From assembly GCA_040767155.1 (NCBI GenBank), contig JAXGPC010000003.1, forward strand, positions 565,520-629,519: 64,000 nt of DNA, given 5' to 3'. This DNA is from Anaerolineae bacterium (GTDB lineage: Bacteria > Chloroflexota > Anaerolineae > B4-G1 > SLSP01). Below the pieces are notes generated by a model. It ran no database searches. It was given only the letters and a program-made list of their open reading frames with translations, and had not been told where the DNA came from. Made by a program: the position numbers and the translations under genes. This document shows, one piece after another, positions 6,846 to 29,679 of the stretch. Positions within the stretch are counted from its first letter, which is position 1, and every line of letters starts with the position of its first letter.

Positions 6846-8169
6846 GTCCACGTCCGTCGCCAGGACATGGGATACCTGGGTGTACCACTATGCAGGAACT
6901 TACCACCTGTACTACTGCACGAGTGAAACCGGCCCAGGTGATGGTTTTGGGGTAGCCACTTCGGAAGACGGCGTCACCTGGGTTGACCATGGACGCGTAT
7001 TGGGACCCTCCGACAAGATGGTCAGGTATATGGGCGCCGGCTCCGTATGGAAGTCCATAAGCTCCTCGGAACCGGAGCAGTTCATCTGCAACTATTCTGA
7101 ATGGCGGATGGAGGATGACGACGCCATCCAGCGCATCCTCTTCGCCCGGTCGAACGATCTGGTTCATTGGCACAAGGTTGATGACGCTGCCAGCTTCAGG
7201 ATCGACGAGCGGTTCTATCAGAAGATCAAGAAAGACCCCCATGGGCCGTGGGAGTGGCCTCGTTGGGATGGACTCTGCGTCATTCCACGCCCAAACGGTG
7301 GATACTACGGCTACTGGACCGCCACACCAAGGGACGCGTTAGGGTTTGGCTTCGGGGAGAGCGACGATGGATTGCACTGGCGCGCACTCGAGCCGCCGCA
7401 GATCGCGTGGGGCGACCCACCCGAGCTCTACTTCGTCGAGGTCGGTGGCGTTCATGAGTTCGACGGGAAGTTCTACTGCATGGTGGGTGATTACGCAGAC
7501 ATCAACTGTGGGATGTACACGCTGGTGGCCGACGCTCCAGGAGGTCCCTTCCGCCCGGCGTCGAGAAACTTCGGTCTCCTGCGGAACCGGACCAGGATGC
7601 ACGTCTACTTCTCACGGTTCCTCGACACGCCCAACGGCGTTCTCGTAAACCACCACACGCTCGCCGAAGGAAAGTTCTCAGACGAGCACTTCGTCGTCTA
7701 CGTCGCGCCGCTCAAGCGAGCTCGGATCATCGATGATGGCCTCTATCTCGCCTGGTGGTCAGGGAATGACAAGCTCAAGGGCACGGAGATCGCGATATCC
7801 GCTACAGACAAGGATACGGTGAGCACCCGTGCCGATACCGGTCTCATACTCGAGGGCACATTGGCGCTACCAGGAAGCCTCTTCATCGGCACCCAGGGCG
7901 AAGCCGGGGTATCGATCTCCGTCGATACGGACGCCACGACCATAATCGGCCCTGCCGCACAGGACGGAGTGTTGGCCAACTGTGAGGAAGAGGTCAACAG
8001 GGAGATCTCGCTTGGCCCTTGCCCTCGATTTCGTCTGCTGCTCCGTCACACGATGCTCGAGTTTTACCTGGAGGATCTGCTCGTTCAGTGCTACACCATG
8101 GCGCGTCCGATGAACGGTACCATCTCCTATCACAACGCCGCTGCGCTGAAACTCTGGAGCTGGACCTAG
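6835..8169 (+). CDS. glycoside hydrolase, five-bladed beta-propeller superfamily (GH43/GH32/GH130-like), family not resolved
   Basis: ORF 6676..8169; preferred start ATG 6835 (MLFRSTSVARTWDTWVYHYAGTYHLYYC...GDGFGVATSEDGVTWVDHGRVLGP) overlapping the previous stop by 11 nt. Confidence 0.5.
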   Translation: MLFRSTSVARTWDTWVYHYAGTYHLYYCTSETGPGDGFGVATSEDGVTWVDHGRVLGPSDKMVRYMGAGSVWKSISSSEPEQFICNYSEWRMEDDDAIQRILFARSNDLVHWHKVDDAASFRIDERFYQKIKKDPHGPWEWPRWDGLCVIPRPNGGYYGYWTATPRDALGFGFGESDDGLHWRALEPPQIAWGDPPELYFVEVGGVHEFDGKFYCMVGDYADINCGMYTLVADAPGGPFRPASRNFGLLRNRTRMHVYFSRFLDTPNGVLVNHHTLAEGKFSDEHFVVYVAPLKRARIIDDGLYLAWWSGNDKLKGTEIAISATDKDTVSTRADTGLILEGTLALPGSLFIGTQGEAGVSISVDTDATTIIGPAAQDGVLANCEEEVNREISLGPCPRFRLLLRHTMLEFYLEDLLVQCYTMARPMNGTISYHNAAALKLWSWT

Positions 8170-23760: not shown

Positions 23761-24414
23761 TCATGACACACGCTGCACAAAGTTGCGCAAGATGGCCAGC
23801 CCGATGGACTGGCTCTTCTCGGGGTGGAACTGCGTGCCATAGAGGTTGCCCCGGCCCACAACGGAAGCGAAAGGGCCACCGTAGTCCGTCGTGGCCAGGG
23901 TGTTTTCAACTGCGGCCTGACAGACATAGCCGTGGTTGAAGTAGGCCCAGGCATGCTCGGGTAAGCCGTGGAGCAAGGGAGTCGACACGACAGGTTCGAC
24001 CAGATTCCACCCGGTATGTGGCACCTTGAGCGATGTACGCACTGCGAAACGCGTCACGCGGCCTGGCAGCAACCCGAGACCCTCGGACCCGCCCAGTTCC
24101 TCACCATAGTCGAAGAGCACCTGCATTCCCACGCAGATCCCCAGAAAAGGCGTTCCAGAGGCAACAACGTGGCGAATCGGCTCCACCAGACCCAGTCGGG
24201 TCAGGCTCCGCATACAGTCAGCGAAGGCTCCAACGCCCGGTAGGACGACTTTCTCAGCGATCAGCACGATTTCGGGGTCATGCGTCACGATCACGTCGGT
24301 TCTGACCGCCCCGGTTCTGACCGCCCCGGTTCTGACCGCCCCGGCCCCAGCCGCCTGAAGTGCCTTGTGGACCGACCGTACATTGCCGGCGCCGTAGTCG
24401 ATCAACGCGATCAT
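23761..24414 (-). CDS. hisH: imidazole glycerol phosphate synthase glutamine amidotransferase subunit, with an in-frame 15-nt tandem-repeat insertion
   Basis: 217 aa [15 protein letters not shown]...GICVGMQVL...HPEKS; N-terminal insertion GAVRTGAVRTGAVRT. Confidence 0.85.
   Translation of the reverse strand: MIALIDYGAGNVRSVHKALQAAGAGAVRTGAVRTGAVRTDVIVTHDPEIVLIAEKVVLPGVGAFADCMRSLTRLGLVEPIRHVVASGTPFLGICVGMQVLFDYGEELGGSEGLGLLPGRVTRFAVRTSLKVPHTGWNLVEPVVSTPLLHGLPEHAWAYFNHGYVCQAAVENTLATTDYGGPFASVVGRGNLYGTQFHPEKSQSIGLAILRNFVQRVS
24298..24342 (-). repeat. in-frame 15-nt tandem repeat (GGTTCTGACCGCCCC x3) inside hisH
   Basis: Three perfect copies encoding (GAVRT)3; shares the GTTCTGAC(C)GCCC core with the hisA repeat. 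Confidence 0.9.
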
Positions 24415-26120: not shown

Positions 26121-27463
26121 GATTTCCTCGAGGCTCCAGTGACCCTCCAGCGCGCGGCAGCGGCATGGGCTGTTAGAGACTCAGCCGATGCAATCTTATC
26201 AGCATCGGCCGCCAATGCGCGCGCAGTCTCAGCATCCAGTCCAATGACGTTGATGACCTTGACGAAGTCAAGAACGTTCACCGGTCCGGTGAATCGCGCC
26301 GTCCCGCCAGTGGGCATGATGTGGCTCGGACCAGCGACGTAGTCACCCAACACCTCAAAGGAGTGTTCGCCGATGAAAATCCCCCCCGCATTGCGAATCT
26401 TCCCGGCCCACGCGTCAGGCTCGGCAACCGACAGGCACAGATGCTCCGGTGCGAACTGGTTGGCGAGCGCGACTGCCGCGGCCAGGTCTGGGGTCAGGAC
26501 GATGCCGCCCTGACCGGCCAGTGAGGTGCGGATCACTTCAGCGCGACTGAGCTCTCCTGTCTGCCGCGTGACTTCGGTCTGCACCGCCTCAGCCAGGGTC
26601 CGCGATGGCGTAAGCAGAATCGCCGTTGCCAGGACATCGTGCTCAGCTTGCGCGAGTAAATCCGCTGCAACCCATGCCGGGTCAGCCGTGTCATCGGCAA
26701 CCACCACGGTCTCCGTCGGCCCATACAGCCCATCGAGCCCCACAATCCCATAGACCTGGCGCTTTGCTACCGTCGTGAAGAGCCCTCCTGCGCCCACCAC
26801 TTTGTCCACGCGGGGAACACTCTCTGTACCATACGTCAGCGCTCCCACGGCCAATGCACCGCCCAGGGCAAAGACCCGGTCGACGCCTGCGACAAAGGCA
26901 GCCGCGAGAATCAGCGGCGTGGGAAGACCAGTACCCCTATCCGCTGGCGTGCATACGATGATCTCGTCCACACCTGCCACGCGTGCCGGTACGGCGCCCA
27001 TGAGCAACGAGGAGGGTAGCGGTGCTGTCCCCCCTGGAACGTAAAGCCCAACACGCTCGAGCGGTACCAACCTCTGTCCCAGCGTGCCACCCATGGCGTT
27101 AGTAGTCCAGTTCTCGATCGGCTGAAGAGCGTGGAAGTCGCGGATACGTCCCGCCGAACGTTCCAGCGCTTCCCTCAGCGCCGGATCCAGAGACCGGTAA
27201 GCGGCCTCCCATTCAGCCTTCGGAATCTCCAGTGTCGCGACCTTGACCCCATCGATGCGTTCTGTCCACTCAATCAGGGCCGCATCGCCGCGCACTCGCA
27301 CGTCAGCCAGCAAGCGCGCAACCGCGGCCTCGGGCGTCAGCGGTTCACCAAAGACCCGAGCGATACTTGCCAGAACGACTTCGGGTACATCCTCAACCGT
27401 CTCCATCGTACGCCGTGTCAGTATCCGCGCGCCCGCCGCAGGACTGTCGTAGATCGTGATCAT
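26117..27463 (-). CDS. hisD: histidinol dehydrogenase
   Basis: 448 aa ...GLYVPGGTAPLPSS...AQAEHD...IFIGEHSFEVLGDYVAGPSHIMPTGGTARF. Confidence 0.9.
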   Translation of the reverse strand: MITIYDSPAAGARILTRRTMETVEDVPEVVLASIARVFGEPLTPEAAVARLLADVRVRGDAALIEWTERIDGVKVATLEIPKAEWEAAYRSLDPALREALERSAGRIRDFHALQPIENWTTNAMGGTLGQRLVPLERVGLYVPGGTAPLPSSLLMGAVPARVAGVDEIIVCTPADRGTGLPTPLILAAAFVAGVDRVFALGGALAVGALTYGTESVPRVDKVVGAGGLFTTVAKRQVYGIVGLDGLYGPTETVVVADDTADPAWVAADLLAQAEHDVLATAILLTPSRTLAEAVQTEVTRQTGELSRAEVIRTSLAGQGGIVLTPDLAAAVALANQFAPEHLCLSVAEPDAWAGKIRNAGGIFIGEHSFEVLGDYVAGPSHIMPTGGTARFTGPVNVLDFVKVINVIGLDAETARALAADADKIASAESLTAHAAAARWRVTGASRKS

Positions 27464-28473
27464 TGTGACACCTCCTGTACCGCAGCCATCATCGCCCTAT
27501 AGCGATCCGGCTCCTCCTCAAAGATGTAAGTCACAGGCGTCACCACGACACCGCTACCACCGATCGCACGCAACTCCGCAATCGCTTCGATCAGGGCATC
27601 GCGCCGCACGACGATCTGCACAGCGTACCAGTTCGGGTTGCCGTCGGCGACAAGCACCGGAGCGATAGTGGGTCCCTGCAACCCACCCAGGACACGCTCG
27701 CCCAGCATCCGCGACGCGATGGCTTGTGGTGACTCCCCGCGCATGTTCGCGACAATCATCAGGTGATCCTGCGCACGTAGGTGCGCTTCCGTGAACTCCA
27801 GAAGCGTCCGGGCGATGCCCAGGACCTCGCCCCGGCGACTGAGCGCCGCGCGGTTGGCGATGAGCACCGCCTGCGAGCGGAGGATGACGCCTCCCTCCAA
27901 GGCGCGCAGCCGGTTGTCCTGTAGTGTCTGGCCCGACGACACCAGATCGACGATACAGTCAGCATAGCCAATCGTCGGCGCGACCTCCAGCGTTCCCTCG
28001 GCATACACCAACTCAAACGGCTCAACGCCGTTCGCAGCGAGGAAGTCCTGCGCCAAATGGGTGAACTGCGTTGCCACACGCAGCGGGCGCTTCCAGGACC
28101 GGGCTTCCTGCGCCAGATCAGCCACGGCCCTGACCGCCGTCCACGATTCCGGAACCGCCACGGCCAGCCGACACCCCCCAAATCCCAGGGCCTCGTGCAG
28201 AACCAGGATCTCGCCCTGGGTGCCTCCATGCTCCTTGGTGACGTCGAGGCCCGTAATGCCGAAATCGACGCTGCCGTCGCGCACGCTGATAACGATGTCG
28301 GTCGGGCGCTGAAAGAGCACCGTCAAACCAGGAAGGGCCGGGATCGCTGCAGCGTACTGGCGAGGATTGGGCTTGTGCACCTTCAGCCCACACGCCGCCA
28401 TGAACTCCACCGCCTCCTCTGCCAACCTTCCCTTGCTGGGCAAGGATATCCGGATCTCGTCACGTTCGAGCAT
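27460..28473 (-). CDS. hisG: ATP phosphoribosyltransferase (long form with C-terminal regulatory domain)
   Basis: ORF 27460..28608; preferred start MLERDEIRISLPSKGRL at 28473 after AAGGAGG; catalytic domain plus HisG_C-like tail. Confidence 0.85.
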   Translation of the reverse strand: MLERDEIRISLPSKGRLAEEAVEFMAACGLKVHKPNPRQYAAAIPALPGLTVLFQRPTDIVISVRDGSVDFGITGLDVTKEHGGTQGEILVLHEALGFGGCRLAVAVPESWTAVRAVADLAQEARSWKRPLRVATQFTHLAQDFLAANGVEPFELVYAEGTLEVAPTIGYADCIVDLVSSGQTLQDNRLRALEGGVILRSQAVLIANRAALSRRGEVLGIARTLLEFTEAHLRAQDHLMIVANMRGESPQAIASRMLGERVLGGLQGPTIAPVLVADGNPNWYAVQIVVRRDALIEAIAELRAIGGSGVVVTPVTYIFEEEPDRYRAMMAAVQEVSQ

Positions 28474-28498
28474 TGTAGCCTCCTTGGATAACACAAAA

Positions 28499-28520
28499 CC
28501 CCCCGGATCGATCCGGGGGG
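28499..28520 (-). terminator. terminator-like hairpin in the his leader (candidate attenuator)
   Basis: Perfect 22-nt palindrome CCCCCCGGATCGATCCGGGGGG followed on the minus strand by UUUUGUGUU, then AAGGAGG and the hisG AUG. Confidence 0.5.
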
Positions 28521-28649
28521 TTCGCATTCTCTTTGTCTGAACCAGGCTAGGTCCCGCTAGATGCAAGCGAAACCCCACCTCCCGAATCGGGCGGTGTCCG
28601 CTTCGCATGATGCATGTGGAGAGCCTGCATGCCTGTATTCACAATCAGC

Positions 28650-28677
28650 ACAATACCACAGTTGCCACGCTTGTCAA
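28650..28677 (-). promoter_or_regulatory. putative sigma70-type promoter of the his operon
   Basis: Minus strand TTGACA-16 nt-TATTGT with TGn extended -10; about 170 nt upstream of the hisG ATG. Confidence 0.45.
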
Positions 28678-28689
28678 TGCGCGACCGAA

Positions 28690-29679
28690 TCAGGGGACGA
28701 GGAGCACTTTCTTGACACCATCCAGACCCTGCTCGATCATCGCGACGCCCCGCTCAAACCCCTCAAGAGGCAGCCGGTGTGAAACAAGGTCGTTGACCCT
28801 GACCGCTCCCGATTGCAGGAGCGCAATAGCCTGGGTCGAGTTGCGTAGCGAGGTGAACGAAGAGCGCAACGTCAGACCCTTCTCAAAGATCTCAAAGGCA
28901 TCCAGCGTCAAGGCGCTGCCGCGCGGCGGCACACCGAAAAGTAACACAGTGCCCCCACCACGCGCCAGGGCCACCGTCGCAGCCATAACCTTGGGCGCAC
29001 CCGTCGCATCGATGACTACATCGTAGCCTGAAGGTGTGAGATCACTCAGATCGCTAACACCCCTCCGAGCTCCGTACGCCTTCGCGAGGTCAAGTCGCGC
29101 CGCCTGTCGTTCCAGAACGGTGATTTCGATCGCTCCACGGCTCAGGGCGACCTGCAAGAGTAGCAAGCCGATAGGCCCGGCGCCCAGGATAACGATCCGA
29201 TCGCCGATCCGAATCCCGGCGCGTTCGATGCCGTGAACAACACACGACAGTGGCTCGACAAACGCCGCCTCGTCGTAGGCGAGCGTTCCAATGTCGAAGA
29301 CGGCCTTCTCCGGTGCGACCACATACTCGGCCATGCCGCCCGGGCGCGTGACACCCACTGCTTGCCAGTTCAGGCAGAAGTTCTGGCGGTTGTTGAGACA
29401 GTGATAGCAGTTGTCGCACGCAATGTTCGGCTCCACCGCAACACGATCCCCGGCCCGGAACCGGCTGACCCGTTCTCCAACGGCGACAACCTCACCGGCA
29501 AACTCGTGCCCGGGGATCACGGGATACTCGCCAAGGTACTCGCCTCGCAGAATGTGGACGTCGGTGCCGCAAATGCCACAAGCAGCGACCTTGACCATGA
29601 CTTCCTCGGGATTTGGAGCCGGCATCGGAACTTCAACGACACTAACACTGTTAGGCTTGTGAATTGTCAGAGCTCGCAT
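28690..29679 (-). CDS. zinc-dependent alcohol dehydrogenase (threonine/sorbitol dehydrogenase-like MDR)
   Basis: 329 aa; GICGTDVHILRGEY, GHEFAGEVVAVG, Cys cluster CDNCYHCLNNRQNFC, GAGPIGLL Rossmann. Confidence 0.85.
   Translation of the reverse strand: MRALTIHKPNSVSVVEVPMPAPNPEEVMVKVAACGICGTDVHILRGEYLGEYPVIPGHEFAGEVVAVGERVSRFRAGDRVAVEPNIACDNCYHCLNNRQNFCLNWQAVGVTRPGGMAEYVVAPEKAVFDIGTLAYDEAAFVEPLSCVVHGIERAGIRIGDRIVILGAGPIGLLLLQVALSRGAIEITVLERQAARLDLAKAYGARRGVSDLSDLTPSGYDVVIDATGAPKVMAATVALARGGGTVLLFGVPPRGSALTLDAFEIFEKGLTLRSSFTSLRNSTQAIALLQSGAVRVNDLVSHRLPLEGFERGVAMIEQGLDGVKKVLLVP

Follow-up and report, generated by a model that had tools for sequence, protein, structure and literature searches.

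A putative histidine leader-peptide attenuator ahead of hisG in Chloroflexota, with covariation for two alternative folds

The systems closest to the element reported here, the leader of a hisG-led his operon on the minus strand of a 64-kb stretch of Anaerolineae DNA (the window, meaning the whole stretch analysed), are the enterobacterial hisL leader (Rfam RF00514), the His-leader attenuator candidates of Firmicutes, the T-box leaders of his genes and the leaderless leader peptides of other phyla. With hisL the window leader shares a short open reading frame (ORF) with His codons before hisG, alternative hairpins and an intrinsic terminator, as well as the predicted logic by which a ribosome stalled at the His codons frees the strand that sequesters the terminator 5' arm. 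No homology between the two was detectable, however: RF00514 (His_leader) reached 19.5 bits (E = 2.2) against a gathering score of 49, and 18.7 bits on the reverse strand. The hisL ORF has about seven consecutive His codons and is led by a Shine-Dalgarno sequence, whereas that of the window has three His codons, two of them consecutive, no Shine-Dalgarno sequence, and a position apparently at the 5' end of the transcript. The helix layout of the window leader also differs from hisL, with a clamp helix plus a hairpin (hairpin A) and an antiterminator that reaches into the terminator loop.

Among Firmicutes, His-leader candidates are reported in the Bacillus cereus group, Peptostreptococcaceae and Erysipelotrichales (PMC9413887) and before hisS or hisZ in bacilli (PMC2965389). 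They share with the present case lineage-specific His-codon peptides (3-5 in a row), a terminator and an antiterminator, detection by comparative genomics and no match to RF00514, but belong to another phylum, are unrelated in sequence and are not described as leaderless. For Actinobacteria there is a conference paper, as cited in PMC4833913. T-box leaders precede his genes in Corynebacterium glutamicum, Lactococcus and many Firmicutes (PMC9413887); they likewise sense tRNA-His charging and set a terminator against an antiterminator upstream of his genes, yet bind uncharged tRNA directly and involve no translation. Leaderless leader peptides of attenuators are described in Deinococcus deserti (PMC4007540), and leaderless polycysteine short ORFs in mycobacteria (bioRxiv 10.1101/834739); there too the amino acid to which the controlled gene or operon relates is abundant in the peptide, although their starts were mapped experimentally whereas ours is placed by promoter spacing, and they come from other phyla and control other operons. 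Some Chloroflexi are predicted to have leaderless genes, which make up about 4.7% of the genes in 4 of the 12 genomes (PMC3160421).

From the elements described below, the window leader is very likely a ribosome-mediated (leader-peptide) transcription attenuator that would tie his operon expression to charged tRNA-His, as had been proposed in an earlier reading of the letters alone (the sequence-only reading), and this proposal was supported by conservation and covariation in 44 related loci. Folding of the leader, an alignment of hisG upstream regions and an Rfam scan had been suggested there as checks. The Rfam scan of the whole window gave zero families at gathering score; in the leader region the matches below threshold (E ≤ 10) were the rnk leader (22.8 bits) and the His_leader match already given, both driven by the terminator stem. 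No T-box matched in 27900..29300 even at E ≤ 10, in agreement with the earlier reading. The leader represents a sequence family of its own, absent from Rfam and of a textbook kind of regulator, with a function predicted from sequence. A literature search for attenuators in Chloroflexota or Anaerolineae found no description; one broad survey (Lopatovskaya et al. 2010) fell outside its coverage, so an earlier report is possible.

The leader region spans about 185 bases ahead of the operon and contains the parts of a leader-peptide attenuator, namely a His-rich short ORF, a terminator ahead of hisG, an exclusive antiterminator and a clamp strand near the predicted stall site:

28672..28677, minus strand: -35 hexamer TTGACA, from the promoter scan, with TTGAC(A/T) or TTTACA at the same place in 43 related loci.
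28650..28658, minus strand: extended -10 element TGgTATTGT (hexamer TATTGT at 28655..28650), from the promoter scan and relatives.
28547..28642, minus strand: probable leader ORF, from GUG 28642 to the stop codon UAG 28549..28547, peptide MNTGMQALHMHHAKRTPPDSGGGVSLASSGT, placed by promoter spacing in relatives.
28607..28618, minus strand: putative regulatory His codons CAC-AUG-CAU-CAU, read from the sequence, with 2-6 His codons at the aligned site in 44 loci.
28600..28606, minus strand: region 1, the clamp 5' strand GCGAAGC, 0 nt after the last His codon, pairing with 28573..28567.
28576..28596, minus strand: hairpin A, CACC-G-CCCG AUU CGGG-A-GGUG, the upper part of the 1:2 anti-antiterminator, -11.3 kcal/mol.
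28578..28590, minus strand: region 2 core CCGAUUCGGGAGG, the antiterminator strand, pairing with the terminator 5' arm and loop.
28567..28579, minus strand: segment GGUGGGGUUUCGC / GGTGGGGTTTCGC, the antiterminator of the sequence-only reading, directly 3' of the region 2 core.
28550..28558, minus strand: AGCGGGACC, which forms a side hairpin (-11.6 kcal/mol) with GGUUUCGCU in the predicted antiterminated fold and has the leader stop codon directly after it.
28496..28523, minus strand: intrinsic terminator hairpin GAACCCCCCGGA-UCGA-UCCGGGGGGUUU, regions 3 and 4, 12 bp, -23.0 kcal/mol.
28490..28498, minus strand: U tract UUUUGUGUU, read from the sequence.

Relatives of hisG were collected with one genome per species, which gave 53 loci from metagenome-assembled Anaerolineae, Thermoflexales or unclassified Chloroflexota with HisG identities of 34-95%. 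A leader of the same design occurred at 44 of them (HisG 55-95% identical); three were not assessable, the contig end lying too near hisG (L037, L048, and L053), and six had no leader (L027 and the five most distant, L045, L046, and L049-L051). The design common to the 44 consisted of a promoter, an in-frame start codon, a His run and a structured region ending in a GC-rich hairpin with a U run. Promoters in relatives read TTGAC(A/T), or TTTACA in the most distant group, followed after 16-18 nt by a -10 element, TG-extended in most group A relatives. The promoter of the window (TTGACA-16-TGgTATTGT, 28650..28677) was present as the sequence-only reading had given it and was conserved in relatives; with its 16-nt spacer and TG extension it scored 10/12. 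Three promoter-like sites were found in the 2.4 kb scanned (0.5 expected), with no other on the minus strand between 27400 and 29800. Apparent promoter duplications in L041 and L032 were rejected as scaffolding artefacts around N runs.

Start codons lay about 6-10 nt past the -10 hexamer (mode 7) in the 44 leader loci, a distance too tight for a Shine-Dalgarno sequence; most of them are ATG, those of the window, L001 and L038 GTG. In 43 of the 44 loci a start 5-11 nt past the hexamer was in frame with the His run, with no stop between them, and stood 7-12 codons ahead of the run; the exception, L020, was a run-detection artefact and reads H-Y-H in frame. His was the commonest residue of the leader peptides (13.1%), and CAT and CAC interchanged (95 vs. 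49 uses) while the first two codon bases, C and A, stayed fixed. In the window, the short ORF announced by the earlier reading is there with its three His codons (CAC 28618..28616, CAT 28612..28610, and CAT 28609..28607): AUG 28630 to TAG 28549..28547 gives 27 codons, MQALHMHHAKRTPPDSGGGVSLASSGT, within a 34-codon ORF from GTG 28651. The start proposed by that reading, AUG 28630, is probably not the true one. Because the leader ORFs of relatives begin at the promoter spacing of GUG 28642, which lies 7 nt past the -10 hexamer in the same frame as AUG 28630, the peptide probably starts at this GUG, is about 31 amino acids long and is translated without a 5' leader. No Shine-Dalgarno sequence precedes GUG 28642 or AUG 28630 in the leader sequence, and transcription would start about 7 nt past the -10 hexamer, at or next to GUG 28642.

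The 174-nt leader had a minimum free energy of -71.9 kcal/mol (z = -4.0 vs. dinucleotide shuffles; 0 of 200 shuffles as stable), so that the suggested folding confirmed an unusually stable RNA; the equilibrium folds with a ribosome footprint were ambiguous, as detailed below. The perfect 22-nt GC palindrome noted earlier (CCCCCCGGATCGATCCGGGGGG, 28520..28499) stood as described together with the U tract and the AAGGAGG-N5-AUG of hisG, and was widened here to a 12-bp stem (28523..28496) followed by TTTTGTGTT. In the terminated fold, made up of clamp helix, hairpin A and terminator, GUUUCGC (28573..28567) is the 3' strand of the clamp and partner of GCGAAGC, and the full 1:2 hairpin reached -22.8 kcal/mol, with -11.3 for hairpin A alone and -23.0 for the terminator. 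Antitermination instead joins the strand GAUUCGGGAGG to the 5' arm and loop of the terminator, a pairing supported by covariation, and the terminator partner of CCGAUUCGGGAGG is CCCCCCGGAUCGA (28520..28508). The antiterminator of the sequence-only reading, GGUGGGGUUUCGC with GCGAACCCCCC, can form in the window as an extension of this pairing, but the conserved core is the adjoining CCGAUUCGGGAGG, and the main conserved role predicted for GUUUCGC is clamp pairing with the GCGAAGC that follows the His codons, not antitermination. Two alternative partners are open to the GGUGGGGUUUCGC segment, GGGGUUU with GAACCCC (28523..28517) or GGUUUCGCU with AGCGGGACC. The former, GGGGUUU (28576..28570) with GAACCCC, lengthens the conserved pairing in the window, where the best duplex (-21.7 kcal/mol) spans both parts; in relatives 73% of its cells were paired and one pair changed from U-A to C-G, and it was weakened in L001, the 95%-identical nearest relative. 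The side hairpin GGUUUCGCU:AGCGGGACC recurred when L001-L004 were folded, and U-A of the window was C-G in L003 (judged by eye only).

A covariance model was built from 15 close leaders with the terminated fold, and the resulting 29-sequence alignment is referred to as A4. The window leader scored 108 bits with this model (28491..28617), and 28 loci gave one copy apiece, scoring no less than 45 bits; no further leader copy was found in the 64-kb window by the covariance model, His-codon runs, the core motif or a scan for promoter, short ORF and terminator. RNAalifold on a plain MAFFT alignment was set aside: it gave only hairpin A and part of the terminator, since differences in loop length misalign the 3' arm. 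On A4 the terminated fold had 88% of cells paired and changes on both sides in 15 of 27 pairs, with a covariation score of 0.204 vs. 0.110 in shuffled alignments (0 of 500 reached it) and at most 0.075 when partners were slid by 1-3 columns. Six of the seven clamp pairs changed on both sides (5' strand, columns 12-18), hairpin A had 88.6% of cells paired, and the terminator had 92.4%, with seven pairs changed on both sides. The antiterminated fold had 92.8% of cells paired and scored 0.158 vs. 0.107 shuffled, with none of 500 shuffles reaching it, and no more than 0.071 with partners slid. Because A4 was fitted to the terminated fold, this antiterminator signal is not biased by the alignment. 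The key pair 28588:28510 (A4 columns 30:123) was GC in 13 sequences, AU in 11, GU in 3 and other in 1. Position 28588 closes the loop of hairpin A and 28510 sits in the terminator loop; the terminated fold gives no reason for the two to covary, and the predicted long-range antiterminator pairing is the only explanation of it. The suggested alignment of hisG upstream regions thus showed a conserved leader, and its covariation supports two mutually exclusive folds, terminator and antiterminator.

In about 40 of 44 leaders the terminator arm had its best upstream partner in region 2, and the duplexes between them (-17 to -25 kcal/mol) were similar in energy to the terminators (-18 to -27). L041-L044, the most distant leaders (HisG about 55% identical), have no RNA sequence in common with the window and show the same switching logic: in the full-length fold AGGACGUGCU is bound by region 1, CACGUCC, which lies directly 5' of the His run, and with a ribosome set on the first His codons its partner becomes the terminator arm AGCGUCCU. 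In L029, L034-L036, and L038, the switching strand CCGGGAGG is perfectly complementary to the terminator arm CCTCCCGG. A metagenome scan with the 15-mer CCCGATTCGGGAGGT as query, from which 80 loci were fetched, returned mostly chance matches; the covariance model confirmed one of the 80, L106, a relative with 95%-identical hisG and the same leader. A 26-bit match in L107 was rejected as a repeat region unrelated to hisG, found only through one unit holding the scan 15-mer; there (7380-7700, minus strand of a metagenome contig) motifs of the type (C)GATTCGGG(G/A) stand in alternation with a repeated palindrome, CTCCCCAAACCGGTTTGGGGAG.

The most conserved stretch of the leader, CACCGCCCGAUUCGGGAGGUG, which lies in hairpin A, encodes T-P-P-D/N-S/A-G-G in many loci, and a conserved peptide TPPDSGG (with a PPD/PPN stalling motif) was considered as the cause of its conservation. 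This candidate was rejected: L005, L007, and L015 read the stretch in another frame (I-P-I-R-E-A) and L013 has a stop codon inside it, which places the constraint on the RNA and not on the peptide.

Some relatives carry variant leaders. In L028 (2890-2990) and in L023 and L025 (2950-2990) the peptide reads MLTKT..WHHT.., and 4-8 tandem 8-nt units NNATTCGC (CCATTCGC / AGATTCGC) lie between the terminator and the hisG Shine-Dalgarno sequence; these units could be a binding-site array for a second regulator. The terminator of L023 and L025 is about 340 nt upstream of hisG. In L047 (2830-2875) the segment with His codons and clamp strand is duplicated in tandem (CATCATGCGCAGCGGATG twice), so that the leader peptide has two His clusters (HHH...HH), and the terminator has a poor U tract, TTGTCATTATG. 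At the six loci without a leader (listed above) hisG follows another gene by 0-40 nt and has no leader of its own, and covariance model R1 found no copy elsewhere on the DNA fetched for them; these lineages must have a different his regulation, or a control element further upstream.

In the mechanism that we infer, the RNA would begin at or next to GUG 28642 and a 70S ribosome would translate the ORF of about 31 codons without a Shine-Dalgarno sequence, meeting His-Met-His-His at codons 9-12. With plentiful histidine, the ribosome would translate as far as the stop codon at 28549; behind it the clamp GCGAAGC:GUUUCGC and hairpin A would re-form as the 1:2 hairpin, the terminator 5' arm would be left free and the terminator would fold, halting the polymerase at UUUUGUGUU, 17 nt before hisG. 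With scarce His-tRNA the ribosome would stall on CAU CAU. The ribosome footprint extends about 9-10 nt beyond the A-site codon in Escherichia coli, and here it would mask the clamp 5' strand, which starts directly after the last His codon. With the clamp masked, only the weak hairpin A would hold region 2 (CCGAUUCGGGAGG, aided in this genome by GGGGUUU), which could then capture the emerging terminator 5' arm and loop; the terminator would be blocked, and hisG to hisH and the following ORFs would be transcribed. The response in vivo and the geometry of stalling are, like the leaderless start, predictions of this scheme.

Several observations weigh against this mechanism. In equilibrium folding, the truncated window RNA has its energy minimum in the antiterminator even without a ribosome, and with the footprint included and the A site on CAU the competing fold is better by 1-2 kcal/mol. 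As equilibrium folding is ambiguous for the window, the switch would have to be kinetic, a point on which the leader was likened to the trp operon, where the decision is kinetic. Refolding barriers were in line with this: into the antiterminator of the window the barrier was 14.9 kcal/mol without a ribosome vs. 6.2 with one stalled on the last His codon, the medians were 14.5 (free) and 9.6 (stalled), and the barrier was higher without a ribosome in 20 of 21 comparable leaders, all these figures being heuristic upper bounds from direct refolding paths. With a stalled ribosome, 28 of 29 leaders had 6 nt or more of the terminator arm engaged by the antiterminator, as against 21 of 29 when free. 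Since the aligned sequences are kin, significance is overstated by the shuffle controls. At the conserved start position the window has GUG, not AUG, and the transcription start follows from promoter spacing. The window U tract UUUUGUGUU is interrupted. Finally, the uninterrupted His run of the window, L001 and L106 is only two codons long (with His at 3 of 4 codons in the window) vs. 3-6 in most relatives. The enterobacterial his leader has seven His codons; in the trp leader two regulatory codons are enough, and the short run therefore weakens the case only slightly.

The genes on which the alternatives bear are arranged as follows, all on the minus strand:

27460..28473, minus strand: hisG, ATP phosphoribosyltransferase with a HisG_C domain, from Pfam matches and the ORF list.
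28479..28485, minus strand: hisG Shine-Dalgarno sequence AAGGAGG, with a 5-nt spacer to the ATG at 28473.
28690..29679, minus strand: zinc-dependent alcohol dehydrogenase gene, the 5' neighbour of the leader, from Pfam and the ORF list.

HisG is of the long form (337 amino acids, Pfam HisG and HisG_C). Its gene is the first of the operon, in the order hisG-hisD-hisC-hisB-hisH followed by three more ORFs on the same strand (ORF lists); a PfkB-family kinase gene precedes the alcohol dehydrogenase gene. Only 16 nt separate the U tract from the hisG ATG. No transfer RNA or transfer-messenger RNA gene was found in a search of the whole 64-kb window.

The sequence-only reading had left room for the hairpin being only the terminator of the upstream alcohol dehydrogenase gene, with the short ORF and the complementarities incidental. 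The hairpin lies 167 nt downstream of the stop codon of that gene (28690) on the same strand, no other terminator stands between that gene and hisG, and read-through transcripts from it would meet the same hairpin. A strong promoter-like site, however, separates the stop codon from the hairpin, and the His run, the reading frame and the antiterminator covariation are conserved. The dehydrogenase gene was upstream in only 14 loci and was absent from 25 loci that carry the leader and offer 1.4 kb or more of upstream sequence, in which the unit is kept before hisG behind other genes; the leader unit travels with hisG and not with the dehydrogenase gene, whatever gene lies upstream, and the terminator explanation is extremely improbable. 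A control acting through translation or mRNA stability, in which the hairpin would be a processing or stability element or the ORF would only load ribosomes for hisG, gains something from the imperfect U tract of the window, the poor one of L047 and the mere 10 nt between the end of the hairpin and the hisG Shine-Dalgarno sequence. The hairpin excludes that sequence and the start codon, though, most relatives have 4-7 U after the terminator stem, and in several of them the terminator stands 80-340 nt ahead of hisG, too far for direct occlusion or ribosome re-initiation; we regard such control as highly unlikely.

Only slightly more credit is due to a structured RNA switch read without translation, either a histidine- or tRNA-binding riboswitch or the target of a regulatory protein recognising hairpin A (CACCGCCCGAUUCGGGAGGUG), which we consider very unlikely. 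For an attenuator, the sequence of hairpin A is conserved to an unusual degree (18 invariant columns in 28 sequences), and the leader ORF has no Shine-Dalgarno sequence. That conservation is also explained by one strand having two alternative partners, one of which has to pair with the terminator 3' arm as well; no T-box or other Rfam family beyond the stem-driven matches already given appeared even at E ≤ 10, the swaps of CAC and CAT leave the first two codon bases fixed, and the His run with an in-frame start is the one feature common to all sequence groups, including those with unrelated RNA sequences.

Within attenuation by a leader peptide, a further proposal is that the leader represents an undescribed, Chloroflexota-specific leaderless class in which the exposed GGGAGG would also be bound by the 3' end of 16S rRNA and so sense ribosome availability. 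The switching strand GGGAGG resembles a Shine-Dalgarno sequence, and its alternative partners CACCGCCC and CCCCCC resemble anti-Shine-Dalgarno sequences; we hold this to be doubtful. If it were true, his expression would be tied to ribosome availability besides His-tRNA, and the leader would give direct evidence that in Anaerolineae transcription and translation are coupled and 70S ribosomes load at the 5' end.

The leader-peptide attenuator favoured here is itself of a textbook mechanism and as such unsurprising. It would bring Chloroflexota (Anaerolineae/Thermoflexales), where hardly any gene regulation has been characterised, within the range of classical His attenuation, and the 29-member structure-guided alignment and its covariance model define an RNA family outside Rfam. 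Covariation for both folds, loop-to-loop pairs included, is uncommon for attenuators, whose antiterminator is usually predicted from energies alone. The spacing of the start codons suggests leaderless translation of the sensor peptide; this could mark coupling of transcription and translation in Anaerolineae/Thermoflexales, and the leader could aid the annotation of transcription starts and small ORFs in metagenome-assembled genomes.

Two further observations concern the neighbouring genes. A plus-strand promoter-like site, TTGACA-17-GATCAT (10/12, 28712..28740), lies inside the 3' end of the alcohol dehydrogenase gene facing away from the his leader, and is probably a chance match. The hisH ORF (23761..24414, minus strand) contains a perfect 15-nt tandem repeat of 3.2 copies (24297..24344 of the window; plus-strand unit consensus CGGTTCTGACCGCCC), which is in frame, yields three GAVRT units close to the N-terminus of the glutamine amidotransferase subunit and looks like a recent in-frame expansion.

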